NCBI GenBank assembly: GCA_964508155.1
Contig: CAZDRE010000001.1
Location: 197,174 to 261,173 of the forward strand
Direction: 5' to 3'
DNA length: 64,000 nt
Source of the DNA: an uncultured Candidatus Bathyarchaeia archaeon
GTDB taxonomy: Archaea > Thermoproteota > Bathyarchaeia > Bathyarchaeales > DTEX01
The notes beneath the pieces were generated by a model that had not been told where the DNA came from, did no database searches, and saw only the letters and a list, made by a program, of their open reading frames with translations. Below are positions 3 through 22,928 of this stretch, piece after piece. The translations under genes were made by a program, and so were the position numbers. Positions within the stretch are counted from its first letter, which is position 1. The number at the start of each line of letters is the position of its first letter.

Positions 3-725
3 ATGGTTAAGCTCGTTGAGATGATAGGTGAGCGGAGAGGACTTGGGGATTTACTCGCCGAGGGAACGAAGAGGGCGGCCAAAAAGATAGGTAGGGGAGC
101 TGAGAAGTACGCGGTTCATGTTAAGGGGCAGGAGGTTCCGATGCATGAGCCTAGACTGAAGAGGGCTTTAGGTCTGGGATATGCCGTTTCGCCGACGGGA
201 GCGGATCATGTCCATAATCTACATGATCTTGGACTTGATACGATGAGTAGGAGCCTTCAGGAGCTCGGCTCCTTCGGCATTTTAGAGCCCATCCCACTTG
301 AGGATCTTGGACCTAGAAAGGTTAGGGCTTTAATATACGCCGTGAACTGGCGCGTTCTGGAGAACACCCTTTTACTGTGCATCTTCGTGCCTTGGAGCTA
401 CATACAGGAGGTTGAGATAGTTAGGGCCGTCACTGGCTGGAATACGACGGCTTGGGAGCTGATGAAGGTTGGAGAGCGCGTAACGACCATGGCTAGGATC
501 TTTAATGTTAGGGAGGGCTTCAAGGTGGAGGATGATTGGCTTCCAAGTAGATTCTTCACTCCGCATACTTCAGGCGCGCTCTCGAATACCGCTGTAGATC
601 CAGATAAGCTTAGAAAGGCTAGGAGCATATACTATGAGATGATGGGCTGGGATGAGCAGGGCATACCGAAGGAGATGAAGCTAGAGGAACTCGATATTGG
701 ATGGACTGCGAAACTATTGAAGTGA
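3..725 (+). CDS. aor: Aldehyde:ferredoxin oxidoreductase (AOR) family, C-terminal ~240 aa; the 5' end is cut by the window edge
   Basis: The ORF is open to the window start. The translation shows an AOR-family C-terminal domain pattern (GLGDLLAEGTKRAA, KGQEVPMHEPR, GLGYAVSPTGADH). Confidence 0.85.
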   Translation: MVKLVEMIGERRGLGDLLAEGTKRAAKKIGRGAEKYAVHVKGQEVPMHEPRLKRALGLGYAVSPTGADHVHNLHDLGLDTMSRSLQELGSFGILEPIPLEDLGPRKVRALIYAVNWRVLENTLLLCIFVPWSYIQEVEIVRAVTGWNTTAWELMKVGERVTTMARIFNVREGFKVEDDWLPSRFFTPHTSGALSNTAVDPDKLRKARSIYYEMMGWDEQGIPKEMKLEELDIGWTAKLLK

Positions 726-768
726 TGAAGACCTACAGGAAAGATCACTTGAATCGATGGGTTTTCCT

Positions 769-1662
769 TTATTCAAAGAATCCCTGTAGGAAATCTTTCA
801 GTGATCCATGATGTACAGCCTTCGCCAAGAACTCTGTTCCCTGCTGATTACCCCAGCTATAATAGATTATCGTCTCACCTCTGAATTCGCATAGGTCGAC
901 ATCGGAGTTATTGATGTTTAAGGCTTTACGGATCCTTCTACGCTGCTCGTCGCTCAAATTTGGATTCGCGATCTTCTTATCCTCTTCGGATGGAGACATG
1001 AGGGGATTGTATGGACTGCTCTCCCAATGAGTTAGGTCTCTTGAGCGTATGATGTGAGGCTCATATCTCGGGCCGGGCTTAGCCTCGAGGTAAATCATGT
1101 AGTAATAGTCGTTAAGGAAGCGAAGGGCTGGACATGCAGTGTAGCGATCTTTAGAATAGACATGATCGAGCGGGGATAGTCTCCAATTGATGAGATCCTT
1201 GGACTCGGCAAAGTATATTGTGTAACGGACGCCTACCACCTCCTTAGGTTCGCCTATCTCGATCGCCATCACATAGCCATCCTTGCCCATGCATACGGAG
1301 TTATTGTATATGCCCCATCCCGGCAGTTTCAACGCTAGCTTAGAAGACCACTCCTTGAGATCTCTTGACCAAAAGACCCTTATTTCTGACCCTCCCCACC
1401 TCTCGACTCCATAGACAAATACAACATCATCTTCCACGTATGCGCTGCCTAAGTGATAGCCCCAAGCGAAGGCCGAGATAGGCTTATCCATCTCCACATC
1501 TATAAATCGGAAATATGAGTTTCCAGTCTTATTCTGCCAGTAGTTTGGGCGGACATACTCGAAGAGGTAAAGCCTATCCTGGAATACTATAGGCGTCGTC
1601 TCAACCATGTCACAGTCAACGGCGCCCAACTTTTTAATTGATGGCTTGGATCTTCCAGACAA
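769..1662 (-). CDS. Beta-propeller glycoside-hydrolase-like protein (GH43/GH32-clan-like); function uncertain
   Basis: Intact 297-aa ORF with repeated W/Y-rich blade-like segments. It lies divergent to a GH127-like gene. No catalytic motif could be assigned with certainty. Confidence 0.35.
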   Translation of the reverse strand: MSGRSKPSIKKLGAVDCDMVETTPIVFQDRLYLFEYVRPNYWQNKTGNSYFRFIDVEMDKPISAFAWGYHLGSAYVEDDVVFVYGVERWGGSEIRVFWSRDLKEWSSKLALKLPGWGIYNNSVCMGKDGYVMAIEIGEPKEVVGVRYTIYFAESKDLINWRLSPLDHVYSKDRYTACPALRFLNDYYYMIYLEAKPGPRYEPHIIRSRDLTHWESSPYNPLMSPSEEDKKIANPNLSDEQRRRIRKALNINNSDVDLCEFRGETIIYYSWGNQQGTEFLAKAVHHGSLKDFLQGFFE

Positions 1663-1747
1663 TCCGATAGTCCCATCCGAACTTCAATACTGAATCTGTG
1701 TGCATGTCATCTTAATTCCTAAGCAATAAAAATTTTAGTTCTTAACG

Positions 1748-3652
1748 ATGATCAACCAACGATATGAGATGAGACAATCTAATATTACGCTTAGAAAGAA
1801 AGCCCTTGAGCCATTACCGTTAGGCTCTATTCGACCTGAGGGATGGCTACTAAATCAACTACGCATACAGGCAGATGGCCTCAGCGGACATTTAGATGAG
1901 TTCTGGCCGGACATCAAGGATAGCGCATGGTTTGGAGGTAACGCCGATAATTGGGAGCGTGCCCCCTACTGGCTTGATGGAATAGTTCCCCTCGCATTCC
2001 TACTTGATGATCCGACATTAAAGGCTAAGGTCGAGAAATATATGGATCTTATCATTAAACGTCAAGATAAGAGTGGATGGATAGCGCCAAGCGATGACCC
2101 GGCAAACTATGATCTTTGGGCAGTATTTCTGGTCCTAAAACCATTGATCCAATATTATGATGCTACAGCCGATGAGCGCGTTCCAAGAGTTGTTAAGAGA
2201 TGTTTACGCTGGTTAGATGAGCATATCGGCAGCCATCCATTATTCAATTGGGGAAAATTCAGATGGTTTGAGTGTCTAATAAGCATTTACTGGCTTTATG
2301 AGAGAACTGGGGAGAAGTGGCTTCTGGATCTTGCCGTCAAATTAGAGGCTCAGGGCTTTGACTGGGAAGACTTCTTCGAACGTTGGCCACTAAAGGAGCC
2401 TACTCCAAAGGGAAAATGGAACTACATGGGGCATGTAGTTAATAATGCCATGGCTATTAAGGCCCCCGCACTGTGGTGGCGCCTAACAGGAGACGAGAGG
2501 GACAAGAGGATGACGTATGAGATGATCGAGAAGCTGGATAGATATCACGGCACGGTTACAGGCGTCATATATGGCGATGAATGCTTAGCCGGAAAGAATC
2601 CCTCACACGGCACCGAGTTATGCGCAATCGTTGAGTATATGTATTCACTTGAGATTTTACTCTCCATCCTCGGAGATCCGAAGTTTGGGGATCGCTTGGA
2701 GAAGATAGCCTATAATGCTCTTCCGGCGGCTTTCTCATCGGATATGTGGGCGCATCAGTATGATGAGCAGGTGAATCAAGTTGAGTGTAGCATTAGGGAG
2801 GGCAGGATCTGGACGACTAATTCCGCAGATGCGAATATTTATGGTTTAGAGCCGAATTATGGATGTTGCACAGCGAACTTCAGTCAGGGATGGCCGAAGT
2901 TCGCGGCTCATCTATGGATGCGAACGGCGGATGATGGGTTGGCAGCCGTTGCTTATGCGCCGTGCAGAGTAGCGACTACTATCAGGGGAGTGCCCGTTAG
3001 AGTCGACGTTACTACGGATTATCCCTTCCGAGAGGAGATCGACATAAGCATAGAAGTTGAGGAGACCGTGCAGTTTCCGCTTTATCTAAGAATTCCATCA
3101 TGGTGTGGAGATGCCATACTTGAGATTGATGGGGAAAGGATTGGTCCTCCCGAGGCTGGAGTGTTCTTCAAAGTGGAGAGGATATGGACCGGCAGATCGA
3201 ATATTAGATTGGTATTGCGGATGAAACCACGCATTTACCGTCGCTATCGGAATTCAATAGTCCTCGAACGCGGCCCTCTGGTATATGCATTAAAGATAGG
3301 AGAGAATTGGAGGAAGATACGTGAATACAAATCTTATCGTGGATTTCCAGTTGCTGATTGGGAGGTCTATCCTACAACCCCATGGAATTACGCTCTCGAC
3401 CTAGGCGAGAAGGATCTTGGCAGACTAAGGTTCATTGAGCATCCAATAGGCGAAAGGCCATTCTCACCTGAAGAAGCGCCCATCTCAGTTAAGGTTAAGG
3501 GTATAAGGATAGACTCTTGGAGGCTAGATAGAGGCTCAGCTGGGGAGATGCCAGAAAGCCCAGTCAGCGCGGAGGGAAAACTCGTCGACCTAACACTAGT
3601 TCCTTACGGCTGCACCCACCTCAGGATAGCTGAATTTCCAACAATAAAATAA
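1748..3652 (+). CDS. GH127 / DUF1680-family glycoside hydrolase (beta-L-arabinofuranosidase-like)
   Basis: 634 aa. It has a HGTELCA (E-x-C) motif and a later GCCTANFSQGWPKF motif (Cys-Cys), matching the Zn/Cys catalytic signature of GH127. Confidence 0.7.
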   Translation: MINQRYEMRQSNITLRKKALEPLPLGSIRPEGWLLNQLRIQADGLSGHLDEFWPDIKDSAWFGGNADNWERAPYWLDGIVPLAFLLDDPTLKAKVEKYMDLIIKRQDKSGWIAPSDDPANYDLWAVFLVLKPLIQYYDATADERVPRVVKRCLRWLDEHIGSHPLFNWGKFRWFECLISIYWLYERTGEKWLLDLAVKLEAQGFDWEDFFERWPLKEPTPKGKWNYMGHVVNNAMAIKAPALWWRLTGDERDKRMTYEMIEKLDRYHGTVTGVIYGDECLAGKNPSHGTELCAIVEYMYSLEILLSILGDPKFGDRLEKIAYNALPAAFSSDMWAHQYDEQVNQVECSIREGRIWTTNSADANIYGLEPNYGCCTANFSQGWPKFAAHLWMRTADDGLAAVAYAPCRVATTIRGVPVRVDVTTDYPFREEIDISIEVEETVQFPLYLRIPSWCGDAILEIDGERIGPPEAGVFFKVERIWTGRSNIRLVLRMKPRIYRRYRNSIVLERGPLVYALKIGENWRKIREYKSYRGFPVADWEVYPTTPWNYALDLGEKDLGRLRFIEHPIGERPFSPEEAPISVKVKGIRIDSWRLDRGSAGEMPESPVSAEGKLVDLTLVPYGCTHLRIAEFPTIK

Positions 3653-3755
3653 GGGTGGATATCTCTTCTCCTATGCAAGTGATCTTTATGAGCAGAATCG
3701 AATATCTCAAAGGCTTATAGAACGCTCATACGCATCTGAAACAGGAGATCATTAA

Positions 3756-4176
3756 ATGCCACGAGATAGCGAAGAAAACCATCCTATAAAAATTGCTGAT
3801 GGAATGAAGGTTGAAGATAAAGCCAGAGGCAAGATAGTTCTTGGAACGATCATAGGAGACCTACATGACATCGGGAAGGAGATCATAAAGTCACTGCTCA
3901 TCTCCGCTGAATTTGAAGTCTACGACTTAGGAGTAGATGTGCTTCCTGAAAGATTTGTTGAAAAAGGCAAAAGAAACAGGAGCGAAGATCATAGGCATCT
4001 CAGCACTACTCTCAAAATCAATTGCTAACACAGCGAGGGTCGTTGAAGCGTTGAGGGAAGCGGGGATCCGCGATGAGGTTAAGGTTATAGTTGGAGGCGC
4101 GGCTGCTAGGCCATGGATGGTCAAGAAATATGGCGTAGACGCTGTCGTAAACGACGGATCAGTGGGCTTGAGATAA
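3756..4176 (+). pseudogene. Stand-alone cobalamin (B12)-binding domain protein (corrinoid-protein-like), split by a 1-nt frameshift
   Basis: Two overlapping ORFs (3756-4028 and 3937-4176) together rebuild one ~140-aa B12-binding domain with DxHxxG (GDLHDIG), SxL (ISALLS) and GG (VIVGGAA) motifs. The frames join at the homopolymer gaaaaagg (3961-3967). Confidence 0.7.
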
Positions 4177-4178
4177 TA

Positions 4179-5030
4179 ATGAAGTGGGCGGAAGAGGATT
4201 GAGCGGCGTGAGAGATTCCTCGGGCTCCTCTAGCATGAGAAGCCCATTTGATCCCGCTGGATGTATGGTGCTCCCCAGCATTCGAGGTTAAGTTACGCGG
4301 GCGATTGGACGGTAAGAGGCTAGAAGGGTTATCTCAGGATTTATGGCTTGGCATAAGGTCTGTCGGTCCTGGAGTCTCGGAGGAATTCGTGCGTAGAGGC
4401 GTAGTTCATGAGCCCTTTATTCACTATGGAACAGAAGTGTGGGTCGATGAGGATACTATGGAGGATGAGCGGGGAATAAGACGGCGATTAACGGCTACGA
4501 GAACCGAGAGTTGAGTTGTATACTCACCATTGAAAAATGTCAGTGTAGATTCGCTCGATGATTATCCGTTTCCGGATTCGAATGCTCCAGGTAGGTTCAG
4601 GGTGACGAAGGATGATGCTGAGGAGTATAAGGAGAAGGGATGCTGGGTTGTAGGTCACTTCGGAATCGATACATTCTGGTGTTAGGCTTGGCATCTCAGG
4701 GGCTACAGGCAATTAGCGGTTGACCTTATATGAATCCGAGATTCGTTGAGAAGCTATTGGATTAACTGCTCGAATATTATTTGGGGATAGGAGGGAGATT
4801 GGCGGATCTCGGAGTGGATCAAGTGAATATGATGATGTTGCATGCCAAACTGGTATGATAATCTCTCTTAGATTATGGCGCAGATACATTAAGCCCTATT
4901 TTAGGAGGCTGATAGATGCCTTACGTCCGAGAGTCAAATACATCTTTTATCATCCGGTGGAGACTTGAGGGCTATTAGCCATATATGATGTGGTGAGGAA
5001 ATATGGCAGGTATCCACTATGACCGTGAAT
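4179..5030 (+). pseudogene. Decayed uroporphyrinogen-decarboxylase (URO-D) family methyltransferase (MtaA/MtbA-like)
   Basis: There is no long ORF, but fragments in all three frames align in order to the intact paralog at 42126-43187: ERRERFLGLL*HEKP, IPLDVW, VDEDTMEDERGIRRR, GRFRVT..GCWVVGHFGIDTFW, SLRLWRRYIKPYFRRLIDALR..KYIFYH, and YDVVRKYGRY at the C-terminus. It carries multiple stops and frameshifts and an internal deletion of ~90 codons. Confidence 0.65.
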
Positions 5031-5063
5031 CCCCTGTAGATCATAGCCTAAATGATGTTTAGA

Positions 5064-6308
5064 TTAAACTTTGAGACTTGTCTCGTTTGGTTTAGATTTT
5101 GAGAGTGTAGAGGCTGCGAATATGAGGCATGAGCTGAGGAGTATTATGCCTAACGATAGGAAAGAATCTGTATATCCAACCGTTACGGATAGGATTAGAC
5201 CCGTTATGACTGGACCTGACATTTGACCTATATCCATTATCATCGCTAGGAAGCCCATGGCCGCTCCGTATAGGTCTTCTCTGGCCAAGTCTCCAACGAG
5301 AGCCGGAGCGGCGGAGGTGACCATCGAATAGCTCAGCCCATAAGTTATGGATATCAATAGTAGGATGGGGAAGCATGTTGTGAATGGGATTGCTGAGAGG
5401 CTGACTGCGCCGATAAGAAGCCCAAGGATTATCGGTATTCTCCTCCCGATCCTGTCTGAGAGCCTCCCCATAAATGGGTTTATTAAGGGGATGAATACGA
5501 GCTGCGAGCCCGTTATCACGCCTATAAGTAGGGGATCAAGCATCACAACATTCTTTAAGTATCCGACTAGAAAAAACTCGAGGGCTCCATAGGAGTATCG
5601 AGTTGATGCCTCAACCAGTCCAGCGGCTAATATTCCGCGATTCGCCGCTACAACACTCCATCCATCCATCAGCCTAGGAGATCTAAATGATAGGTTCATT
5701 TTCGGCTTCTCTTTAAGCTTCTCTTCTTTCAGTAAGACGAGCGTTATGAGGAATGCTGTTATCCCGGCGACTCCCACAGCGAGGTATAAAGCTCTAAAGT
5801 TCCAGACAGTCATGTAGAGAATGAAGCCGCCGAGGAACGGAGCTACAGCCCGTCCGACAAGTGTCGCCGAAGTGAATGTTGAGATCTTCTCTCCCCTGCT
5901 CGACGGGAACATCTCAGCTATCGCCGCTCTAGCCACAGGCACGAATATTGCCGTTGCGAATCCGTGGTAGAAGCGCACGAGGATCAGTTGCCACCACGAA
6001 TCTATTAGGATGTAGAGGAAAGGGGCTGAGGCGAAGATCACGGCTGAGAAAAGTAATACTCTCCTCCTACCGAGGATATCCGAGAGTGAACCTGCAGGGA
6101 GACTTATAAGGACTCCCGGCACAGTTGAGGCAGCTGCAACGGTGCCCATAAGCGCCTCAGGCGTATTCAAGCTTTCAGCGAATGGATTGAGAACAGGATT
6201 CTTCGACATAGTTGAGCTTAATATTGCTACTGCCCCGATTATGCATAGAATAGCGAAGAATGAACCTTTAACAGCGGCTTCTCGCGCCAATCTAACCGTC
6301 AGCTCCAC
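5064..6308 (-). CDS. Major facilitator superfamily (MFS) transporter
   Basis: 414 aa with about 12 hydrophobic segments and the MFS loop motif GSLSDILGRRRVLL between TM2 and TM3. Confidence 0.8.
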   Translation of the reverse strand: MELTVRLAREAAVKGSFFAILCIIGAVAILSSTMSKNPVLNPFAESLNTPEALMGTVAAASTVPGVLISLPAGSLSDILGRRRVLLFSAVIFASAPFLYILIDSWWQLILVRFYHGFATAIFVPVARAAIAEMFPSSRGEKISTFTSATLVGRAVAPFLGGFILYMTVWNFRALYLAVGVAGITAFLITLVLLKEEKLKEKPKMNLSFRSPRLMDGWSVVAANRGILAAGLVEASTRYSYGALEFFLVGYLKNVVMLDPLLIGVITGSQLVFIPLINPFMGRLSDRIGRRIPIILGLLIGAVSLSAIPFTTCFPILLLISITYGLSYSMVTSAAPALVGDLAREDLYGAAMGFLAMIMDIGQMSGPVITGLILSVTVGYTDSFLSLGIILLSSCLIFAASTLSKSKPNETSLKV

Positions 6309-6783
6309 CTAGCATTCTATAGCTTCTCTCGCCTATATGCTTTGGGAGACCGATGTCTTCTCGAATGAATATCATTCCGCCACGCATGGAGTATCCAACT
6401 ATATCTCCGTCACGCTCATAAACTACTATCTTATCCTTATTTATGGTATTTCCAACGCCATCCTGAGCATCGCCGTGAATATAAATTGTAGGTCTATTCA
6501 TGAACGCTCCAAATCATTACCACGAGTCGGTTAAATGCGCAGTTCAGTTTAGCCTATAAGCCCGGTTCCAATGTATCTTTGACCCCTTCAGGTTGTATAG
6601 ATTGATCCTTTCATATTTGCCGCTGTAGGATTTTAGGAGAATATTGAGAATCCACCGGAGTCTTATCATCTCGGATGCCGGGCAATATGCATGTCCCGTA
6701 TAGACTCTCCCAAAATCTTTACTTTGGAGAAGGCGGCTTCGGCTGATGCGCGATTTACGGCGATCAGCATTCATATTCTGCAC
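6292..6783 (-). pseudogene. Disrupted GXGXG-motif protein (glutamate synthase domain-3 / FwdC-like)
   Basis: ORF 6292-6501 encodes IYIHGDAQDGVGNTINKDKIVVYERDGDIVGYSMRGGMIFI, which is GXGXG repeat pattern. ORF 6544-6783 resembles the N-terminal part (ERINLYNLKGSKIH). The two pieces are separated by stop codons. The C-terminus is missing and overlaps the MFS gene start. Confidence 0.45.
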
Positions 6784-7982: not shown

Positions 7983-10100
7983 CTAAGACTCATTTTCGCC
8001 TTTTCTACTCCTAATCTTGATCGAAACTAAGACTACAAGCAAAAAAGCCAAGATCAAGCCGGTCAAGAAGCCCCTGAGATACTCATATGCTCCTATCACT
8101 TTCACCTCCGGTATCTCCACGGCCTTAAATGTTAAATATCCAATCGAGACCCTTCCGCTCTTTTGAAGTTTAATCTTCGAGCCATTTACTATCAGAGATG
8201 ACCCGCCCACCAGACATATCCTAGCATTGTTATCCCATAATCTCGATAGATTCAGAAGTATATCAGCATCCTTTAATTCGGCTGATAGGATCCTGCATGT
8301 AGTCAGATGGATTACATGTGGAGATGAGGGCTTGCCGAATTTAATTTTGAACTCGTATCTTCCATGCTCCAGCTCGGGGAGGATCACGTAATCATCCGAG
8401 AATAGAGGGTAGGATCTATTCATGAATTCGACATTACGTATCGTCTTTCCATCTACCCTCAGGCACATGCATGACAGATATCGTAGGTATTCCTCCGGAA
8501 CATCATGTGTGTCCAGCCGAACTATTATCAAATCGGGCATATATGTGATCCTAATCTTAACTTTCTCCCATGCTTTAAATCTACGGAGAAATTCCGTGGC
8601 AGTCATCGAGGAGACATCCACTCTATTGGCATACTCGTACCTTAGAACTTTAAGGAAGACTGCTCTTCTGGTCTTATTGATTAGGCTATAGTCATGCCAT
8701 AGTAGCAGGTAGGGAGCTGAATGGCCTAAAGCATAGAAACCATCGAAGTTTTCCTTCTCGATCCTAAAGGCTTCTTTGGGCGAATACTTCATGAGGTCAA
8801 AATAGTAATAGTCTGATTTTGTGCTCCTCCAGAATATGAAGATAGAGTCGTTCTGTAAAGGCTGAATCCCAACCATGCGCAGAAATGGGTAGGCGAATGT
8901 TTGGATGGCATATTCATACCCAGCCTTCCTCATGAGCGGATAATACTCGATCGGGAACATTCCATCTGGAACCTGCAGACCGCTGATCCTAGTTAGATTT
9001 CCAGCGATATCCCTATAGCTCTGGGCGAGTTCAAACATAACTCTCTCTTTACTCGTAACGTATCTCCAAACTGGATGATGAACTGTGTGACTTGCAAATT
9101 CGACGCCCGCCTCTAACGAGGCATTAAATAGATCCCTTAGTGAGAGCCAATCGATTGTCTTCTCCAATCCACTATAATTTCCGGTTATAATGGCCCAAGA
9201 GAAAGTGAAACAATTCTTTTCGGATCTCCTTAGAAGCCATGATAGGGCATCTCCAGTTGCATCTCTATCGGCGGACCAGTCGGCGTCGATATTGAGCATC
9301 CAGATGACCCTTCCACAGGCCAAGTTCAGGCCTACTGGAGTGTGATCTCCGAAGATACACCATTGAATCGACCTAAGCATGATGCTTGTCCTCTGGAAGA
9401 GGCTGTCTGACGCTGAGAGGGTGAATAGAACCGCCCGGCCACCTCCATACCTCGATGCCACGGCCAGGATGTCTCCTACATTCGTCCGTAAGAGAACAGA
9501 TGCATTCGGCGATGAACTTAAGATTATGTAATCGTAGCTTATATCTTCCAATGGGATCCTATCTCCCACGTGATCCAATGTTATTCTATGCCTCTCCGCC
9601 AAGACAACGAAATCCTTTCCGGATCTAAAGAAGACCCTCTGCAAACCGAAAATTCTCCCGTAAAATCTTATCCAATCATCCATGTAGAACGAAAGGTTTC
9701 CTCTCCGATATGCTGGTATTCCAAAGCAAATAAATGAACCTCCGGACTTGAGCCATTCATCAAGCGCATCTAAAAAGGGCGTAGAGACATTTCTGCTGAG
9801 ATAGCGGGCATACGGGAAGATTAGGCATGAATACTTTGACAGGTCTATGTGTAAAAGATTCTGCTCATCGATTATCTCATACGGGATTCCGGCGAGTAAA
9901 AGGCAGTATTGAACCGCAAGCAAGGCATAATGGGATTCTGCAACATTAATCTGGGCATACCTTAGCGAGTAGACTATTGCAACCGGCTTAACCATGAACT
10001 CGATTGGATATGTATGAGCGGCTGACGATTCCACGTGGACGAGGCTTGAGAGTATAAGTAGGAGCATCAGAACATTCAGGAATCTTCGGGGCAGAAGCAT
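7983..10100 (-). CDS. Secreted, C-terminally membrane-anchored protein with a polysaccharide-deacetylase (NodB-like) core
   Basis: 705 aa. It has an N-terminal signal-like segment (LLPRRFLNVLMLLLILSSLV) and a C-terminal TM helix with a basic tail (LILAFLLVVLVSIKIRSRK). An internal DADWSAD ... ASHTVHHP segment resembles NodB motifs. Many N-x-S/T sequons are present. Confidence 0.5.
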   Translation of the reverse strand: MLLPRRFLNVLMLLLILSSLVHVESSAAHTYPIEFMVKPVAIVYSLRYAQINVAESHYALLAVQYCLLLAGIPYEIIDEQNLLHIDLSKYSCLIFPYARYLSRNVSTPFLDALDEWLKSGGSFICFGIPAYRRGNLSFYMDDWIRFYGRIFGLQRVFFRSGKDFVVLAERHRITLDHVGDRIPLEDISYDYIILSSSPNASVLLRTNVGDILAVASRYGGGRAVLFTLSASDSLFQRTSIMLRSIQWCIFGDHTPVGLNLACGRVIWMLNIDADWSADRDATGDALSWLLRRSEKNCFTFSWAIITGNYSGLEKTIDWLSLRDLFNASLEAGVEFASHTVHHPVWRYVTSKERVMFELAQSYRDIAGNLTRISGLQVPDGMFPIEYYPLMRKAGYEYAIQTFAYPFLRMVGIQPLQNDSIFIFWRSTKSDYYYFDLMKYSPKEAFRIEKENFDGFYALGHSAPYLLLWHDYSLINKTRRAVFLKVLRYEYANRVDVSSMTATEFLRRFKAWEKVKIRITYMPDLIIVRLDTHDVPEEYLRYLSCMCLRVDGKTIRNVEFMNRSYPLFSDDYVILPELEHGRYEFKIKFGKPSSPHVIHLTTCRILSAELKDADILLNLSRLWDNNARICLVGGSSLIVNGSKIKLQKSGRVSIGYLTFKAVEIPEVKVIGAYEYLRGFLTGLILAFLLVVLVSIKIRSRKGENES

Positions 10101-10148
10101 CTCCCAGAGGCGACCTAAGCTATGTTATGCTTTATGGCCAATCGGCTA

Positions 10149-11693
10149 TTATCCTCTCATAGGCCATCTCAAAACATGCATGATATCGGTCTTCGTTATT
10201 ATTCCAAGCAGCTTCTTAGGGTTTCTTTTGTCGACAACCAGTATCCTCCCGATTTTATGCTCGCTCATCTTTTCATAGACGTTCATTGCGGACTCGGTTG
10301 GGTACGCCGTTATCAGCCTTTTATGGGCTATCTCTTTAACTAGGGTCTCCTTGCGTCTTGAGGCTGGAACCCTAGATACATCATCGAAAGTCACTATCCC
10401 AACGAGCTCATCCCTTTCATTTAGAACTGGATAGCCCATGTGATGATGCTTGGTCATTATCGTCAGAACATCCTCAACGGTATATTCAGGCCTAACAGTT
10501 ATTATCTCCCTCGTCATTATCTGCTCAGCCCTAAGACTTGAGAGCAGACTTATCTCACGGGGCAGGAGCTCAAGCATGCGAATATATACTGGAGGAACAG
10601 GCTCTCTCCATCTCTTTCTCCTCTCTATTTCTTTAGCGGCGTATCTCTTCTTTAGGAGACCCATCTCTACGAAGTGAGCGTAGACATCCGGTCTCTCCTC
10701 TATCTTCCTAACGCGAATGACATTCGCTTTTACAGCGTCCTCAAATATTTCCTCGCCTATTTCGGTTCTTATGATGACTATCGACCAGTCCTTCAGTGGG
10801 TGGGCTCCTCCAACTGAGATGTCGGCGAGCTCGGATGTGAAGTCCTCACACATCTTACAGACGCTTAGCGTGTGCGCTTCAATTTCTGGTATGGATATTG
10901 ATATAACCCTTCCATCCTTCATAGAAACCTCATACTTCTTGTCAAGGTCGATCCTTAGGATATCACTGGCATTTACATTATATGCCTCCTTCAGGAATTT
11001 TGTGAGTTCAGGAAAGGAGAAACTCCAGAGGCATATTAGGCCTATAACTATCTTTAGGCTATTCATGATCTTATGCTCCCAGGCCTCAAGCTTTCGGATC
11101 GCCCTGACATGGCACGGCGTTCCAACAAAGGCTATCTTCGTCTTGCCGTATTCGTGAACTGCCCTTCCGAAGGCCTTAGCGACTGATGATGGAAAGTATT
11201 CGAAGTCAACTGCTGATAATAGATCGTCTGGAACGAGACTAAGTAATGGCTTAACCTTTATTGGAGTCTCCTTCTCGCTCTCTGATGTTATTGCGCCATC
11301 TATAAATCCAGTCTTGATTGCATGCATAAGTAGTGCGGTGATAACCCCTCCGCTATGACTTATCTCCCTCAATCTCTCATCGACGGCCTGTGCCAGGATT
11401 ATCTTCCGATAGTATCCTATGCTCTCAGTTATGTTCGGAGCTCCAGCGACGAATCCTAAAGTCTCTAGTAGAAGCGCTTCAGTGAATGGACATATGTCAT
11501 AGCATATTGGACAGAACTCCATGAAGTTTGTGCAGTCATGCGTATATTTGAGGCTTCTACCCTCGATCTTCAAGGCATGCACGGGACAAGCAGCTTCACA
11601 TGCACCGCAGAGATTACAAAAACCCGGCTCAATTATCATCTTCTTTAGGTCATTATATGCGATTAGATCCCTAGAAGTCTTCATGATCTCCAC
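10149..11693 (-). CDS. FrhB/FdhB-family flavo-iron-sulfur protein with an N-terminal 2x[4Fe-4S] domain and a C-terminal CBS pair
   Basis: Motifs CNLCGACEAACP and CPICYDICP, then an FrhB-like core (HSGGVITALL, KIAFVGTPCHVRAIRKLE). The last ~125 aa (10152-10526) form two CBS repeats. It starts 6 nt downstream of the hydrogenase ferredoxin gene. Confidence 0.8.
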   Translation of the reverse strand: MEIMKTSRDLIAYNDLKKMIIEPGFCNLCGACEAACPVHALKIEGRSLKYTHDCTNFMEFCPICYDICPFTEALLLETLGFVAGAPNITESIGYYRKIILAQAVDERLREISHSGGVITALLMHAIKTGFIDGAITSESEKETPIKVKPLLSLVPDDLLSAVDFEYFPSSVAKAFGRAVHEYGKTKIAFVGTPCHVRAIRKLEAWEHKIMNSLKIVIGLICLWSFSFPELTKFLKEAYNVNASDILRIDLDKKYEVSMKDGRVISISIPEIEAHTLSVCKMCEDFTSELADISVGGAHPLKDWSIVIIRTEIGEEIFEDAVKANVIRVRKIEERPDVYAHFVEMGLLKKRYAAKEIERRKRWREPVPPVYIRMLELLPREISLLSSLRAEQIMTREIITVRPEYTVEDVLTIMTKHHHMGYPVLNERDELVGIVTFDDVSRVPASRRKETLVKEIAHKRLITAYPTESAMNVYEKMSEHKIGRILVVDKRNPKKLLGIITKTDIMHVLRWPMRG

Positions 11694-11699
11694 TCAGAC

Positions 11700-12044
11700 T
11701 TAACTTTCTCTCCTATACTCATAAATCATTTTCTCACGGTCATCACCGGCATGCTCAAATTCGTCAGTCATGGTTATTGCGTTTCTTGGGCAACTCTCAG
11801 AGCATTGCCCACAGAATATGCATCTGTCAACGTAATGTTTTATCTCGGCTTTTAGGCCCTTCCCTATCATCTCGATCGCGCCGGAGGGGCATATGCGGCT
11901 ACATAGTCCGCATCCAACGCACTTTTGCATGTCCCAAACTGGACGTCCCCTGAAATCCTTGGGCACGGCTGCCTTCTCGAACGGATATTTGAGAGTGATC
12001 GGAGACTTGAAGATCTGCCTTATCGCCTCTAGTATTATGGACAA
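11700..12044 (-). CDS. 2x[4Fe-4S] ferredoxin subunit (NuoI/EchF/MbhN-like) of hydrogenase 1
   Basis: Motifs CVGCGLCSRICP and CIFCGQCSESCP. It overlaps the large-subunit gene by 10 nt. Confidence 0.85.
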   Translation of the reverse strand: MSIILEAIRQIFKSPITLKYPFEKAAVPKDFRGRPVWDMQKCVGCGLCSRICPSGAIEMIGKGLKAEIKHYVDRCIFCGQCSESCPRNAITMTDEFEHAGDDREKMIYEYRRES

Positions 12045-13204
12045 TGCTTTCTCATCCTCCGTACATTCTCTCTTAGGGTGTCGAAGTCTAGGATCTTCTT
12101 TCTTCCCGTGTTTACATCGATGAGGGCAAGCCTATCCATGCATGCGAAGCATGGGTCTATTCCAGCTAGGACTATCGGTATGTCGGCTACATGCTGTCCC
12201 ATCAGCATCTTGCATAGGGCTGGAATATTCGCTAGTGTTGGGCTTCTAACCTTATAGCGTTCAGGCCTAGCCGTTCCATTAGACCTTGCATAATGGATGA
12301 GCTCGCCTCTTGGAGCTTCAACCCTAGATACCGCCTCGTTTGGTTCTACAGCCATTGGAACCCTAACGCGTAGCATGCCTGCAGGCATGTGATCAAGGGC
12401 GTAGCGTATCATATTTATGCTCTCAAGCATCTCCTCGCACCTCACGATTATCCTAGCGAATACGTCGCATCCATCATGGATTACTACATTGAATGGTATC
12501 TCGTCGTAGGCTGCATACGGATCGTCCCTACGCACATCATTCTTTATTCCGCTTGCGCGTAGGGTTGGGCCTACAGCGCAGAGTTCAATCGCGTCTTTAG
12601 GCTTCAGAACCCCAACATCCACAGTTCTTTTTTGGATCGTCCTATCTGAACTTATGATCTTCATGTAATATTTGATCCTCTTCTCTAGAAAGTCTAGGCC
12701 ATCCTTTATCTTTGGAATCATCTCCGATGGTATGTCCCTTCTAACCCCTCCTATTGTATTCATTGCGTAGTGAACTCGATTCCCAGATATGAACTCAAGC
12801 ATGTCCATCACCGTCTCTCTGTCACGCCACAGATACATGAAGAGCGTATCGAAGCCTATCTCATGAGCGGCTATTCCAAGCCATAATGAATGGCTGTGTA
12901 TCCTTTCGAGCTCGGCTATTATCACACGTATATACTTCGCCCTTAGCGGGGCCTCGATGCCTAGAAGATCCTCTATTGCCTGCGTGTAGCATGTTGTATG
13001 GGCATCTGAGCATATTCCGCAGATACGTTCAGCCAAATAAATATTCTGAATGTATGTTCTTCTCTCGAATGCCTTCTCTATCCCCCTATGATTGTAGCCT
13101 ATTCTAGGCTTGACGTTAACGATTATGTCCCCATCAACCTCGAATGTAAAATGCTCCGGCTCCTTTAAGGCCGGATGCTGAGGGCCGAATGGAACCTTAA
13201 CTAT
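12035..13204 (-). CDS. [NiFe]-hydrogenase large subunit, group-4 type (EchE/MbhL/NuoD-like), hydrogenase 1
   Basis: L1 motif ERICGICSDAH and L2 motif DPCFACMDR, followed by a ~30-aa C-terminal extension. The conserved N-terminus (VKVPFGPQHPALKEPEHF...IGYNHRGIEK) is in frame upstream of the first canonical start (TTG at 13036). The only start-like codon there is ATA at 13204. Confidence 0.85.
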   Translation of the reverse strand: MVKVPFGPQHPALKEPEHFTFEVDGDIIVNVKPRIGYNHRGIEKAFERRTYIQNIYLAERICGICSDAHTTCYTQAIEDLLGIEAPLRAKYIRVIIAELERIHSHSLWLGIAAHEIGFDTLFMYLWRDRETVMDMLEFISGNRVHYAMNTIGGVRRDIPSEMIPKIKDGLDFLEKRIKYYMKIISSDRTIQKRTVDVGVLKPKDAIELCAVGPTLRASGIKNDVRRDDPYAAYDEIPFNVVIHDGCDVFARIIVRCEEMLESINMIRYALDHMPAGMLRVRVPMAVEPNEAVSRVEAPRGELIHYARSNGTARPERYKVRSPTLANIPALCKMLMGQHVADIPIVLAGIDPCFACMDRLALIDVNTGRKKILDFDTLRENVRRMRKHCP

Positions 13205-13710
13205 TGATCCGTAACCCGCCTTTCATCCCTCCCCGACTTGAGTATTGAGCCGCGAAGATCTTCTAGGCGGTATTCCTTTCTGAGCGGATAGATGCCCCTC
13301 GGCCAATTCTCGGGTAGAACCAGCGGGATCAAGTCTGGATGCCCAACGAAGTCTATCCCGAATAGATCATGAACTTCGCGCTCATACAATATCGCTCCTG
13401 GAATAACATCTGTTATCGTGGGGACTCTGGGATTCTCCTTTGGAACGTTGAATCTTAGGGATAATTCTATGGAGCCCTTATATGCGAAGTGATAGATAAC
13501 CTCAAAGTTCTCTTTGAGGTCTACTGCCGTTATCGTGGATAAATGCGTGAACCCCATGTCTTTCAGGTGTCTAATCGCATCCTTAAAGGCTTCGCTTCTT
13601 ACCCAAACAAAGATCCTACGTTTCCTCGGAACCTTCACATCTATTATGCCTTCTCTAAGCTGTCTCCTCAACTCAGATACTATCTCATCCTCTTCCATTA
13701 GCATCGCCAC
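13201..13710 (-). CDS. NuoC/EchD/MbhK-like (30-kDa family) subunit of hydrogenase 1
   Basis: Contains HLSTITAVD, ILYEREVHDLFGIDFVGHPD and LRKEY, the NuoC-family pattern. Confidence 0.85.
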   Translation of the reverse strand: MAMLMEEDEIVSELRRQLREGIIDVKVPRKRRIFVWVRSEAFKDAIRHLKDMGFTHLSTITAVDLKENFEVIYHFAYKGSIELSLRFNVPKENPRVPTITDVIPGAILYEREVHDLFGIDFVGHPDLIPLVLPENWPRGIYPLRKEYRLEDLRGSILKSGRDERRVTDQ

Positions 13711-14209: not shown

Positions 14210-14956
14210 TCAGAAGCCCTTAAAATAATCGTACATCTCCAGGATCTCCCTGATCTTTTCAGAGAATACGGTCTTGGAGAATCTATTTGGGTCTCCGATG
14301 GCTTCTTCGAGCACATGATCGAATGGTATCTCCCCGAGATATTTCAGGCCGATCTCTCTTATTCGCTCTCGTATAAACGTGGATTCTCCCATCTTCATGT
14401 TCTCGATCACTCCTACTATCGGAACATTCAATTCGAGGAGTAGATCAATCAGCTTTTTAACGGTCTCAAATGCCAGCCTAGATGGCGTCACCACCAAGAG
14501 GAACCTAACCCTCTTCATGAGCTTGATTACGTCTAGGGTTGCATCGCCAATCCCCGGAGGCATATCGACTATTAAGTAGTCAAGTTGACCCCACCGAGTT
14601 ATTGCTAACAATTCTATCAGGGCATTTGATGCTTCCAATCCCCTTAGTGGCAGGGCTCTGTTGTCGGAAAAGTAGATTATGGACATGTATTTTATGCTGT
14701 GTATCTCAGGCGGGATTATGCCCTTCCACTCGGTCGGATGGGCCTCTCCCGCATTTAAGATGACATGTGTTGATGGGCTTGTGAAGTCCAGGTCTAAGAG
14801 TCCAACTTTATACTTTTTCTTCGCTAGGGCTAGGGCTATTGCGGATGCTATTAGGCTTTTGCCGACTCCTCCCTTCCCGCTTGAAACGGCGATTATATCG
14901 CTTATGTCCTTTAGTCTCTCATCTATGATGGATAATCTTGGATCCGACATCTTCAC
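14210..14956 (-). CDS. Mrp/MinD-family P-loop ATPase; probable ATPase-type HypB (Ni insertion partner of HypA)
   Basis: Deviant Walker A SGKGGVGKS. It overlaps hypA by 4 nt and precedes the hydrogenase 1 genes. No GTPase-type HypB is present in the window. Confidence 0.6.
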   Translation of the reverse strand: MKMSDPRLSIIDERLKDISDIIAVSSGKGGVGKSLIASAIALALAKKKYKVGLLDLDFTSPSTHVILNAGEAHPTEWKGIIPPEIHSIKYMSIIYFSDNRALPLRGLEASNALIELLAITRWGQLDYLIVDMPPGIGDATLDVIKLMKRVRFLLVVTPSRLAFETVKKLIDLLLELNVPIVGVIENMKMGESTFIRERIREIGLKYLGEIPFDHVLEEAIGDPNRFSKTVFSEKIREILEMYDYFKGF

Positions 14957-15354
14957 TTTACGCCCTTCAAGTCCTCAATCCAAACTCCACGTCCACCTAT
15001 AACCTCAAAGTCCGGACTGCCACATTTGGGGCATCTAATAAATGCGTGGATGACCTCCGGGATGAAGTGTATTGCCTCGGCTACATTCCCATCTATCTTC
15101 TCCTTTTCAAGGGACCATTTGAACCCGCAGTTTCTACATTTAATCTCGGCGTTAACGACCTCTATGTTGAACTTGGCATTCTTGAGGAGGCTTGAGTCTC
15201 TAAGTTGAGTTAAGGCGAACTTGAATACTTCGAGCTCTATTTGCTGGAGCTCCCCGATCTTCAATTTTACCTCCCTAATCTCCCTAAGTCCTTCACTCTC
15301 AGCTAGTCTAGAAATAGTTGAGATGACTGCTTCGGCTAAGGCCCATTCATGCAT
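14953..15354 (-). CDS. hypA: Hydrogenase nickel incorporation protein HypA
   Basis: N-terminal MHEWALAEA motif and zinc motifs CRNCG...CPKCG. The start is placed at the internal ATG at 15354 rather than at the ORF-track start at 15429. Confidence 0.9.
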   Translation of the reverse strand: MHEWALAEAVISTISRLAESEGLREIREVKLKIGELQQIELEVFKFALTQLRDSSLLKNAKFNIEVVNAEIKCRNCGFKWSLEKEKIDGNVAEAIHFIPEVIHAFIRCPKCGSPDFEVIGGRGVWIEDLKGVK

Positions 15355-15374
15355 GGGAAAGCCTAGACTACAAC

Positions 15375-15386
15375 AATATTTAAAGG
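15375..15386. promoter_or_regulatory. TATA-like box (aatatttaaagg) in the hypA / hypE divergent spacer
   Basis: It is centred ~26 nt upstream of the hypA ATG (15354), consistent with a leaderless mRNA, and ~55 nt upstream of the hypE ATG (15435). Confidence 0.4.
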
Positions 15387-15434
15387 TAATGCTGAGTGGA
15401 GATCCGTGGTGAGCTACAGCGTGGTGCATAATGG

Positions 15435-16502
15435 ATGAGGAGTAGAGATGGACATATTACTATGCTTCACGGCGCTGGCGGAACCGCCATGCACAGCCTA
15501 ATCAAGGATTATATTCTGAAGTATTTTGGGGAGGATCTCGAAGTTGATGTTCCGCTTGAGGCCTTGGATGACGCCGCGGTTATTGGCGATATTGTATTGA
15601 AGAGCGACTCGCACGCCGTTAAGCCCATATTCTTTCCGGGAGGAGATATCGGCTGCATAGCGGTTGCTGGCACCGTAAATGATATTGCGGTTTTAGGCGC
15701 TGAACCCCACGCCTTAGCGTGCGGCTTCATCCTAGAGGAGGGATTATCCCTAAGCGACTTCGAAAGGATCTTAATGAGTATGCGGCGGATGTGCCGCATG
15801 GCAGGAGTGAATATCGTTACTGGAGATACGAAGGTTGTTGAAAAGGGAAGTTTAGGGGGCTGTGTCATAAACACTTCTGGGATAGGCAGAAGGACTGATG
15901 CCCTAGAGAGAAACCTTAAGGTTGTGAGAGAGTTTAGGGGCGACTTCAAGGCGCGGTGGATTTTAGATTCGAATCTGAGGAAGGGCGATAAGATAATATT
16001 GTCAGGCACAATTGGGGATCACGGCGTAGCCGTTCTATCAGCGCAGGAAGGATTAGATTTTGGAGGAGATATAAAATCTGATGTTAAGCCTCTAAACCGG
16101 ATGATACAGGGCCTTTTAGGCGAGGTTGGCGGCGTAGTCGCAATGAAGGATCCAACTCGCGGGGGATTGGCTGATGCATTAAACGAGATCAGCGAGAAGT
16201 CCAATGTCGGCATACTTATCTATGAGGATAAGATTCCGATTAGAGATTCCGTGCGGGCTGCATGTGAGATGCTGGGCCTTGATCCCCTTGAGATAGGGAA
16301 TGAGGGTAAGGTGGTTATAGGCGTCGTTAGGGAGGCAGCGGAGGACGCCCTGGAATTTTTAAGGTCTACTGAGGAGGGGAGGGATGCTGAGATAATTGGA
16401 GAGGCAACCGATGAGTTTTCAGGCGTGGCCATGCAGACCATGATAGGCGGAAAGAGGATAATTAATAGGCCGGTTGGGGATCCAGTTCCGAGGATATGCT
16501 AA
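15435..16502 (+). CDS. hypE: Hydrogenase maturation protein HypE
   Basis: AIR-synthase-like fold pattern, N-terminal LHGAGG and the terminal PRIC motif. Confidence 0.9.
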   Translation: MRSRDGHITMLHGAGGTAMHSLIKDYILKYFGEDLEVDVPLEALDDAAVIGDIVLKSDSHAVKPIFFPGGDIGCIAVAGTVNDIAVLGAEPHALACGFILEEGLSLSDFERILMSMRRMCRMAGVNIVTGDTKVVEKGSLGGCVINTSGIGRRTDALERNLKVVREFRGDFKARWILDSNLRKGDKIILSGTIGDHGVAVLSAQEGLDFGGDIKSDVKPLNRMIQGLLGEVGGVVAMKDPTRGGLADALNEISEKSNVGILIYEDKIPIRDSVRAACEMLGLDPLEIGNEGKVVIGVVREAAEDALEFLRSTEEGRDAEIIGEATDEFSGVAMQTMIGGKRIINRPVGDPVPRIC

Positions 16503-17590: not shown

Positions 17591-17829
17591 TAGGCATCAG
17601 CACGCTGAGCCTCATCTGCCTCTAGGATCTCATTCCATAATCGAATCGTCTCCTCAGCCTGCTCTCTACTTAGGACTTGAATTGCATAGCCAGCGTGAAC
17701 CAGAACGTATTCTCCAACCTTAACGTCCACCAGCGTTACGTCTATCTCCTTTATGATTCCCCCTCCGAAGTCCACTTTAGCCCTATTCTCATGGATGCAT
17801 AGGACCTTAGCCGGAACAGCCAGACACAT
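17590..17829 (-). CDS. hypC: Hydrogenase maturation chaperone HypC
   Basis: N-terminal MCLAVPAKV. The start is set at the ATG giving Met-Cys. The stop overlaps the hypD start. Confidence 0.9.
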   Translation of the reverse strand: MCLAVPAKVLCIHENRAKVDFGGGIIKEIDVTLVDVKVGEYVLVHAGYAIQVLSREQAEETIRLWNEILEADEAQRADA

Positions 17830-17867
17830 GATCATCCAAGCATAAATGAATTGGAGAAATAAATCAG

Positions 17868-22924: not shown

Positions 22925-22928
22925 GTTC

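Follow-up and report, generated by a model that had tools for sequence, protein, structure and literature searches.

Positions 3805-5022 of the analysed window very probably hold a pair of dead genes left over from an accessory two-gene corrinoid/UroD cassette of Bathyarchaeia. The window is a 64,000 nucleotide stretch of DNA from an uncultured Candidatus Bathyarchaeia archaeon. No functional protein is obtainable from either cassette gene in the window. Comparison with intact orthologues shows several independent disabling lesions, which mark both as pseudogenes. They are genuine but ordinary pseudogenes, the result of ordinary gene loss that is not very recent. An earlier note on this DNA had described the recent loss of a corrinoid protein and an MtaA-like, UroD-type methyltransferase, with one orphan paralogue surviving. 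The decayed pair and its loss are real and not an artefact, whereas "recent", "MtaA-like" and "orphan survivor" are overstated or lack support. The features were as follows.

1748-3652, plus strand: GH127 beta-L-arabinofuranosidase-like gene, intact, directly upstream of the remnants (PF07944, PF20736)
3519-3532, plus strand: direct repeat, left copy, GGAGGCT(A)GATAGA, within the 3' end of the GH127 gene (end-point of the deletion in sister contig L098)
3653-3804, plus strand: spacer from the GH127 stop to the first corrinoid-homologous base (blastn; cap-domain HMM, -0.5 bits)
3805-4202, plus strand: corrinoid-protein gene remnant, equivalent to codons 81-212, Rossmann B12-binding domain only (PF02310)
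3961-3967, plus strand: +1 frameshift by insertion of a single base, orthologues GAGAAA-GC, window GAAAAAGGC (orthologue alignment and frameshift-aware alignment)
4155-4158, plus strand: second frameshift, 1-nt deletion (-1), GACG-GATCAG against GACGCTGTCAAG (frameshift-aware alignment)
4199-5022, plus strand: methyltransferase pseudogene of the UroD superfamily, orthologous to the 365-aa UroD#2 of bathyarchaeial corrinoid cassettes (tblastn, profile HMM)
4904-4916, plus strand: direct repeat, right copy, GGAGGCTGATAGA, within the methyltransferase pseudogene (comparison with L098)
4971-4978, plus strand: junction of an internal deletion, ~263 nt (~88 codons) lost at GCTAT/GCCAT microhomology (codons ..RAI / ..LAI) (blastn)
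5064-6308, minus strand: MFS transporter gene, intact, directly downstream, used as neutral-rate yardstick (PF07690, E 5e-52)
42126-43187, plus strand: distant UroD-family gene (PF01208), intact, outside the decayed module (identity, synteny)

Corrinoid protein remnant

Blastn homology to the orthologous cassettes begins at 3805, which is codon 81 of the corrinoid gene of locus L012. The full-length orthologues of 207-240 aa contain an N-terminal four-helix cap (B12-binding_2, PF02607) and codons 1-80 are missing from the window copy. A profile HMM of 47 orthologous caps found no cap remnant upstream (-0.5 bits) or elsewhere in the window. A degraded cap proposed at 3667-3784 by extension of a frameshift-aware alignment was rejected as spurious, the same HMM giving no signal there.

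Matches to the corrinoid profile HMM in the window were confined to 3756-4025 and 3937-4173. The joined frames matched PF02310 with an E value of 2.7e-23 (Pfam). The motifs DxHxxG (3858-3875), SxL (4000-4008) and GG (4093-4098) are spread over two frames and agree with the B12-binding domain gene originally described. The remnant is 77-81% identical to bathyarchaeial PF02607+PF02310 corrinoid proteins of 212-221 aa, and its nucleotide identity is 72-74% (blastn against L012, L010, L006, L009 and L002).

The gene had been read as split by one extra base. That base is present at 3961-3967, where the simplest reading is an additional G at 3966/3967 (compared to 6-7 orthologues), but there is also a second frameshift at ~4156 and codons 1-80 are gone. 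The +1 and -1 frameshifts compensate, so that the tail is back in the original frame. Once restored the C-terminus reads ...GLEIIMKWAEED* and ends at the original stop, TGA 4200-4202. Because the restored tail runs to this stop, ATG 4179 falls inside the corrinoid tail and encodes an internal Met.

A fortuitous ATG at 3756, within the spacer, opens a 90-aa ORF. A small cap-less B12-binding protein with a new role could in principle still be made from 3756-4202 by programmed frameshifting. The Rossmann part contains zero nonsense codons, its DxHxxG, SxL and GG motifs are kept and the two frameshifts offset each other. This is nevertheless exceedingly improbable. Some 63 codons between the shifts, SxL and GG included, are out of frame with ATG 3756 and no recoding signal is evident. 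The full-length homologues found all have the cap, and most of the small number of entries lacking it (123-155 aa) come from short contigs or are marked as partial. Segment 3756-4202 is deleted in its entirety in the sister lineage, which argues against a function.

Methyltransferase remnant

The methyltransferase start codon has changed from ATG to TTG (4199-4201) and overlaps the corrinoid stop, as in the intact relatives. The earlier placement of the start at ATG 4179, two nt past a corrinoid stop, was therefore not upheld. There is no in-frame start codon in the sequence between 4183 and the TAG at 4231. Five small frameshifting deletions were located at ~4205 (1 nt, codon 3), ~4246, ~4725, ~4829 and ~4954. 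The nonsense codons are TAG 4231-4233, TGA 4512-4514, TAG 4683-4685 and TAA 4763-4765, and the original stop is TGA 5020-5022. Readthrough by pyrrolysine or an alternative code was ruled out, since all three types of stop codon are present and no recoding explains them.

The ~263-nt deletion removed residues ~263-345, which lie within the C-terminal half of the barrel. By blastn, window 4205-4975 corresponds to L012 9706-10483 and window 4978-5015 to L012 10749-10786. The description of a UroD-type gene full of stops and frameshifts with a deletion of ~90 codons is thus correct (~88 codons are missing). Both a complete (beta/alpha)8 barrel and an open reading frame are absent.

The similarity to the URO-D family is significant and collinear. 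The reconstructed methyltransferase matched PF01208 with an E value of 2.3e-7 and intact 365-aa orthologues with an E value of 1e-119 at 60-71% identity. In tblastn searches UroD#2 of L006, L009 and L002 matched pieces of the window in three frames, with summed E values of 1e-74 to 3e-82. The UroD profile HMM matched each methyltransferase fragment (E 1e-41 to 1.6e-3).

Authenticity of the lesions

At least 13 lesions were counted, three large deletions among them, and these cannot be homopolymer errors. The first corrinoid frameshift does sit in a short homopolymer context (GAAAAAGG), as would be expected if the organism had undamaged genes and sequencing or assembly errors had produced the frameshifts and stops. 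Such an explanation would have to account for seven small indels, four substitutions that created nonsense codons of three kinds, a lost 80-codon 5' end and the 263-nt deletion. The flanking GH127 and MFS genes have uninterrupted ORFs of full length that match Pfam domains strongly. The Logan contig SRR15988953_203642, from a separate assembly, is 100% identical across window 3461-5186 and reproduces every lesion, making an assembly artefact unlikely; it may share the sample series of the MAG, so this excludes assembler error and not all sequencing error. The 263-nt deletion was also seen in a different metagenome, JGI 3300010332. Error as the source of the lesions has almost no probability left and is effectively refuted.

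Flanking genes, sister contig and age of the loss

The best 80 matches of the GH127 gene among GTDB species representatives were bacterial except for one "archaeon" record (55%), the top matches having 60-65% identity. A contig scan for synteny via GH127 returned almost only bacterial GH127 genes and no syntenic archaeal locus. Synteny via the MFS gene was discarded as the MFS genes next to intact two-gene loci are not orthologues of the one in the window. Promoter, terminator and repeat scans of 1500-6400 found nothing above chance, and the GC profile showed no distinct island.

Sister contig L098 has 94% nucleotide identity to the window. The ~263-nt deletion junction is common to both. The 1-nt deletion at 4954 is present in the window and absent in L098. 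Window 3533-4903 (1.37 kb) is missing from L098, deleted between the direct repeats (13/14 nt). Here L098 2025-2087 corresponds to window 3532-3470 and L098 597-2038 to window 6349-4904, with an overlap of 14 nt.

Between the window and L098 the MFS gene has 97% amino acid identity with a dS of 0.15, a dN of 0.019 and an omega of 0.13. The cassette remnant evolves at the neutral rate: its divergence over 150 aligned nt, from one sister contig, was 0.133 (JC 0.147), compared to the MFS dS of 0.15. As the ~263-nt deletion is shared at this MFS dS, inactivation predates the split from the sister lineage and the loss is older than the word "recent" had implied. Four nonsense codons in ~250 codons correspond to roughly 0.1 neutral substitutions per site. 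The window branch had a small nonsynonymous excess of about 0.02-0.03 (dN/dS against intact orthologues). Synonymous sites between the window and the distant intact orthologues are saturated (pS 0.74-0.84), so these orthologues cannot directly show relaxed selection.

Intact cassettes

In the databases searched intact cassettes were found almost only in Bathyarchaeia. Orthologues of both remnants, with about 70-80% amino acid identity, are intact in other Bathyarchaeia. The corrinoid gene and UroD#2 keep one gene order throughout the relatives examined, either as a pair or with a further gene, UroD#1, between them. The neighbourhood of the cassette differs in every genome, one copy is flanked by IS elements and decayed UroD fragments adjoin the cassette in some genomes. 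In the loci examined the cassette adjoined neither a pterin-binding or MtrH-type MT2 nor a RACE/Ram activase. It is possible, and proposed here tentatively, that the intact cassette, with or without UroD#1, is an uncharacterised zinc-cysteine-free methyl-transfer module and a mobile accessory unit, for which the window and L098 form a datable loss series.

The two-gene form is intact in L100, L101 and L103 (metagenome scan), where the L103 copy spans 4357-6089, and the window junction is collinear with them. The ancestor of the lineage could instead have had three genes (corrinoid, UroD#1, UroD#2) and lost UroD#1 by recombination during decay. The proposed recombination site is the similar 5' ends of the tandem UroD#1 and UroD#2, which are alike over the first ~25 nt, and window 4198-4244 aligns to both. 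The three-gene form occurs in six distinct intact loci, the L012 copy spanning 8001-10796, and the loci with the highest pairwise identity to the remnant, L012 (74%) and L010 (71%), are of this form. The first five intact loci were all of this form. The idea was demoted to an unlikely one because the two-gene loci share the window junction, with the same type of overlap of corrinoid stop and methyltransferase start. The Cys of DVWCSPAF is shared by the window with L100, L101 and L103 only, and no UroD#1 remnant was found in the window by profile HMM. The NJ tree did not resolve the placement of the window remnant. A two-gene cassette is retained here as the ancestor of the window copy.

The UroD-family gene at 42126-43187

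This intact gene had been taken for a paralogue of the methyltransferase and the orphan survivor of one module. Both are PF01208 members, are collinear and end in KYGRY. The block-by-block alignment between them holds only at the superfamily level. tblastn of the 42126 protein against the window did not find 4179-5030, and BLASTP of the reconstruction against the 42126 protein gave a misregistered piece with an E value of 6e-4. The shared ending is present in both genes but is a superfamily-wide motif not specific to them, CdmB (PDB 9rui) ending in KHGKY. Intact orthologues of the remnant are only 25% identical to the 42126 protein, and the cassette UroD genes 25-28%. An H-x-C motif is preserved in the 42126 gene at the site that reads H-S-D in the cassette enzymes, and the gene belongs to its own 49-member cluster at 90% identity. 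Its housekeeping neighbourhood (kinase-like / F420-ligase-like / UroD / HtrA / DHH / CDC48) is conserved, and the same neighbourhood occurs in other Bathyarchaeia without a corrinoid partner. Descent of the two from one module is very unlikely, and the 42126 gene does not qualify as an intact paralogue or a surviving part of it.

Relationship to known methyltransferase systems

The AlphaFold model of orthologue P0001 had a pLDDT of 80 and aligned to UroD and MtaA structures with TM scores of about 0.6-0.66 (Foldseek). Foldseek on this model confirmed the UroD fold and did not separate MT1-like from MT2-like enzymes; CdmB was not among the matches. The best match of the orthologue-family profile to the sequence of a solved structure was CdmB (E 1.5e-6), compared to 3e-5 for MtaA.

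The cassette enzymes have the PF01208 fold in common with the MtaA/MtbA methylcobamide:CoM methyltransferases (MT2; 4ay7; TM 0.61-0.65). The zinc ligands of the M. mazei MtaA, His-x-Cys ... Cys, are reportedly H240, C242 and C319 according to the paper on structure 4ay7. In the alignment to 4ay7 yHsDg of UroD#2 stands opposite LHICG and tsnn opposite PGCG, so that UroD#2 has H-S-D ... S-N-N for the H-x-C ... C of MtaA and both zinc-ligand cysteines are absent. The window copy retains only the His of the metal site, and UroD#1 reads H-S-D...A-H-G. P0001 scored 70.8, 63.4 and 55.3 bits against NCBIfam MtaA/CmuA cut-offs of 244, 235 and 400. With scores far below these cut-offs and both cysteines missing, "MtaA-like" is not supported as a description of the methyltransferase.

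The UroD-superfamily MT1 enzymes include the O-demethylases MtvB, OdmB, VdmB and MtoB and the chloromethane dehalogenase CdmB (PMC13222342). In these systems, as in the cassette, the cognate corrinoid gene adjoins the gene of a UroD-fold TIM-barrel methyltransferase. CdmB and a Moorella enzyme are reported to be without zinc (PMC13222342). The cassette enzyme lacks the MtaA-type zinc cysteines and, like CdmB, has a KYGKY-type C-terminus, the similarity to CdmB being limited to the C-terminal half (residues 166-362). Unlike the MT1 systems the cassette has, in the loci examined, no adjoining activase or MT2 of the pterin-binding or MtrH kind, and the window copy is a pseudogene.

The mlp clusters (Kountz & Balskus, PMC10418091) combine several MtaA-like UroD proteins, a corrinoid protein and a RACE activase. 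The type 1 mlp cluster consists of Mlp2 and Mlp3 orthologues, the corrinoid protein and the RACE activase (PMC10418091). The cassette resembles them by gene content, with one or two UroD methyltransferases beside a corrinoid gene and no H4folate/H4MPT methyltransferase gene, and both are found in anaerobes. It differs in that no RACE/Ram activase lies beside the bathyarchaeial cassette. Bathyarchaeia also have the MtgB/MtgC/MtgA system for lignin methoxyl groups (Yu et al. 2023, PMC10989822), which shares with the cassette the archaeal class and the broad family of its corrinoid protein. MtgB is described as a protein of ~300 aa that is not homologous to any known MT1 enzyme (PMC10989822) and is therefore not the 365-aa UroD-type enzyme of the cassette. 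"Bacterial-type" MT1 clusters were found in 31 of 297 bathyarchaeial MAGs (PMC10989822).

Proposed course of decay and significance

The ancestral cassette would have encoded a methyltransferase-cognate corrinoid protein of the TIGR02370 / MtaC-MtbC-MttC-MtgC type (cap and Rossmann domains) and an overlapping 365-aa TIM-barrel methyltransferase. By analogy with the known enzymes UroD#2 may have catalysed methyl transfer between a small-molecule substrate and a Co(I)/CH3-Co(III) corrinoid. Both the first 80 corrinoid codons and the promoter would have been lost, and the arrival of the bacterial-like GH127 gene upstream is a possible, circumstantial cause of this 5' truncation. Neutral drift would then have brought the frameshifts, the start-codon change, the nonsense codons and the ~263-nt deletion. 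Decay is probably ongoing by microhomology-mediated deletion, the sister lineage having lost nearly the whole remnant.

A dead gene pair in a MAG matters little in itself. The 90-aa and 79-aa "B12-binding" ORFs have been entered in public collections as individual proteins. As they are fragments they should not be counted as methylotrophy potential when the metabolism of Bathyarchaeia is reconstructed. By its context the UroD gene at 42126 is unrelated to corrinoid cassettes and should not be scored as MtaA. The window and L098 provide a clean small example of the erasure of an archaeal accessory gene, in the sequence of inactivation, neutral drift biased to small deletions and kilobase deletions between direct repeats of 11-14 nt. 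If UroD#1 were acceptor-side and UroD#2 substrate-side the three-gene form would be a self-contained relay using UroD-type enzymes only. The locus points to a corrinoid/UroD cassette family in Bathyarchaeia that is a candidate for biochemical characterisation.

Identity and lesions of the gene pair

Three-frame reading of 3700-5100 gave two short ORFs, 3756-4028 and 3937-4176, with pieces of a UroD-family protein 3' of them spread over three frames. Joined, the two ORFs encoded a B12-binding Rossmann domain (PF02310, E 2.7e-23) with 77-81% identity to corrinoid proteins of 212-221 aa. These relatives carry an N-terminal PF02607 cap which is missing from the window copy. The methyltransferase, reconstructed by hand, matched PF01208 (E 2.3e-7) and intact Bathyarchaeia proteins of 365-369 aa (E 1e-119 to 5e-97, 59-71% identity). 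The strength of the family and orthologue matches of both remnants argues that the decayed corrinoid/UroD-type pair described in the earlier note is real and far beyond chance. Nearly all homologues carry a Bathyarchaeia label, and TBP, TFE and CDC48 are also encoded in the window.

The lesions were mapped by comparison with orthologous cassettes.

Features of the pseudogene pair and its upstream neighbor
1748-3652, intact GH127 (beta-L-arabinofuranosidase-like) gene, upstream, directly on the truncated corrinoid 5' end
3805, first homologous nucleotide of the corrinoid gene (codon 81)
3858-3875, DLHDIG motif
3961-3967, corrinoid frameshift, one extra base
4000-4008, SAL motif
4093-4098, GG motif
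~4156, corrinoid frameshift, one base missing
4199-4201, former methyltransferase start ATG, now TTG, overlapping the corrinoid stop
4200-4202, original corrinoid stop TGA; restored tail GLEIIMKWAEED
Codon 3 of the methyltransferase, 1-nt deletion
~4246, 4725, 4829 and 4954, frameshifting deletions in the methyltransferase
4231 (TAG), 4512 (TGA), 4683 (TAG) and 4763 (TAA), methyltransferase nonsense codons
4971-4978, junction of an internal deletion of ~263 nt (residues ~263-345 gone)
5020-5022, original methyltransferase stop

The extra base at 3961-3967 and the loss of about 90 methyltransferase codons, both reported earlier, were borne out by this map. The methyltransferase start had been placed at ATG 4179, which is an internal Met of the corrinoid tail (IIMKW; IIKMW in the two-gene contig L103). 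Nothing matched the 152-nt stretch that separates the GH127 stop from 3805. Without exception the small indels of the methyltransferase were deletions. Recoding was excluded as the nonsense codons were of three kinds.

Intact cassettes

In contigs with intact orthologues the corrinoid protein gene was always first, and a UroD-family gene then overlapped or abutted its stop.

Forms of the cassette in the compared contigs
Three-gene form (corrinoid protein, UroD#1 of 349-356 aa, UroD#2 of 365-368 aa): L002-L005, L006/L007, L008/L009, L010, L012, L102; loci L012 8001-10796, L006 649-3450, L009 6301-9101
Two-gene form (corrinoid protein, UroD#2): L100 2-1518, L101 1811-3566, L103 4357-6086

The window pseudogene had 61-75% identity to UroD#2 compared to ~37% to UroD#1 and, judged by these values, UroD#2 is its orthologue. 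The window junction agreed base for base with the two-gene form (L103 ...GAGAAATGAACTGGCGTGAA, window ...GAGGATTGAGC-GGCGTGAG), and the Cys of DVWCSPAF was common to the window and the two-gene loci only. On the strength of these two features the pseudogene pair is read as what is left of a two-gene cassette, the form which the earlier note had assumed. A three-gene ancestor which has since lost UroD#1 is a minor alternative. Over their first ~25 nt UroD#1 and UroD#2 resemble each other so closely that the two forms could be interconverted by unequal recombination, giving a route between them.

The surroundings of the two-gene and three-gene cassettes differed in every relative, with IS elements in L002, radical-SAM genes in L006 and L009, MFS transporters in L103 and UroD fragments in L002 and L012. 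This marks the cassette as an accessory unit, gained and lost often. The L002 cassette has several transposase genes of IS elements (DDE_Tnp_1, IS240) around it (387-5773, 9348-12416), and in L006/L007 a B12-binding radical-SAM gene and a PqqD-like ORF lie 3' of it (L006 3620-5410). A third UroD-type gene was full length at L006 5600-6670. Fragments of such a gene adjoin intact cassettes as short ORFs (L002 6016-6315; L012 6749-7222, minus strand), so decay of UroD-family genes is recurrent in this neighborhood across Bathyarchaeia.

The gene at 42126-43187

This gene encodes a UroD-family member (PF01208, E 1.4e-17), which had been taken for a surviving intact paralog, alignable block by block to 4179-5030. 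Using its protein as query, tblastn did not detect 4179-5030, and BLASTP against the reconstruction reached no better than E 6e-4, over a segment that was out of register. Identity to the intact cassette enzymes was 25-28%. The protein falls in its own 49-member cluster (90% identity) and reads H-S-C where the cassette enzymes read H-S-D. The KYGRY tail is indeed shared but it is superfamily-wide, the C-terminus of CdmB being KHGKY. Its neighbors are F420-ligase-like on one side and an HtrA protease gene on the other, and the wider block also includes CDC48, a kinase-like gene and a DHH phosphoesterase. The block is kept in other Bathyarchaeia, where no corrinoid gene was found near it. The gene is not a survivor of this module. 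The pair at 41199-43187, F420-ligase-like (PF01996) and UroD-family with an MtaA-like H-x-C motif, is conserved in other Bathyarchaeia (L094-L097); its best solved-structure match was HemE, at only E 0.01.

Sister contig, age and assembly support

The MFS gene adjoining the pseudogene pair has a 97%-identical homologue on the sister contig L098, a JGI contig of 2.4 kb (Ga0116200_10040807). L098 retains window 4904-6349 at 94% nucleotide identity. It then jumps from 4904 to 3532 over the 13/14-nt direct repeat GGAGGCT(A)GATAGA, so that just 63 nt remain from the 3' region of GH127, and again from 3470 to 1927 over AAGnAnAGCGC. GH127 itself is thus wrecked in L098 (2025-2391, equal to window 1612-1927 plus 3470-3532), its interior (window 1928-3469) deleted between short repeats. 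In what is left of the 5' part, 1 nt is missing after codon 3, shifting the frame, and a GAG codon has become TAG. The whole neighborhood is under erosion.

The junction of the 263-nt deletion is common to L098 and the window while the 1-nt deletion at 4954 is absent from L098. Inactivation is therefore older than the separation of these lineages, both of which have gone on acquiring lesions. The loss, earlier called recent, predates ~6% nucleotide divergence and is recent only in a relative sense. Divergence of the remnant and spacer was 0.133 (JC 0.147) over 150 alignable nt, compared to dS 0.15 for the intact MFS gene (dN 0.019, omega 0.13). The remnant is thus evolving neutrally.

A Logan contig from run SRR15988953 was 100% identical to window 3461-5186, so every lesion was reproduced by a second assembler. 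The same organism was also present in run SRR15988951. The corrinoid gene fragments are held in public collections (NCBI, Logan) as separate proteins of 90 aa (P0070) and 79 aa (P0074), through which "B12-binding" genes can be overcounted. The source of P0074 and of the 42126 protein is a 298-kb NCBI contig.

Likely role and surroundings

The corrinoid protein is MtbC-/MtgC-like and scored 178 bits against TIGR02370, the methyltransferase-cognate corrinoid family (cut-off 215). The UroD#2 profile matched CdmB (E 1.5e-6) and, more weakly, MtaA (3e-5), while the best match of UroD#1 was MtaA (1.9e-10). CdmB is the chloromethane:corrinoid MT1 of Acetobacterium, grouped in the UroD superfamily with the O-demethylases MtvB, OdmB, VdmB and MtoB (PMC13222342). 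Where the MtaA zinc site is H-x-C ... C, UroD#1 reads H-S-D ... A-H-G and UroD#2 reads H-S-D ... S-N-N. An AlphaFold model of the intact UroD#2 orthologue P0001 (pLDDT 80) gave a UroD/MtaA barrel (TM 0.6-0.66). All scores were far below the NCBIfam MtaA/CmuA cut-offs and do not support the earlier label "MtaA-like". The ancestral enzyme is most safely described as a putative corrinoid-dependent UroD-superfamily methyltransferase, more MT1-like than MtaA-like. Analogous systems are already known: bacterial-type O-demethylase clusters, reported from some Bathyarchaeia (PMC10989822), and mlp clusters in anaerobes (PMC10418091).

A Pfam sweep of ~58 ORFs and six-frame profile sweeps of the 64-kb window found no second corrinoid protein and no MtrH, MttB/MtaB-type MT1, pterin-binding methyltransferase or activase. 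Long ORFs at 7983-10100 (minus, 705 aa), 29106-30356 (plus, 416 aa) and 769-1662 (minus, 297 aa) had no Pfam match at E 1e-4. The window also has subunit genes of a group-4 [NiFe]-hydrogenase-like kind in two sets, with the 49-kDa and 30-kDa homologues occurring twice. The first large-subunit ORF is the shorter (333 aa vs 375 aa). With these sets are hypA, a Mrp/ParA-type ATPase gene, hypE, hypD, hypF and a HycI protease gene. Together these genes occupy 12035-13710 (minus), 22451-26543 (plus), 14210-20156 and 21192-21677.

The best 80 GTDB species-representative matches of GH127 were bacterial (KSB1, Aminicenantes, Anaerolineae) except for one record labelled only "archaeon" (55%), and none was labelled Bathyarchaeia. 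Top matches had 60-65% amino acid identity. GH127 is a candidate horizontal acquisition, and its arrival may plausibly have taken away the promoter and 5' end of the cassette.

The pseudogene pair at 3805-5022 is genuine and its limits are well defined; it is older, and its decay further advanced, than first thought. Its biology is ordinary. It has modest value in cautioning annotators and in showing, on a small scale, how an archaeal gene is erased by deletions.
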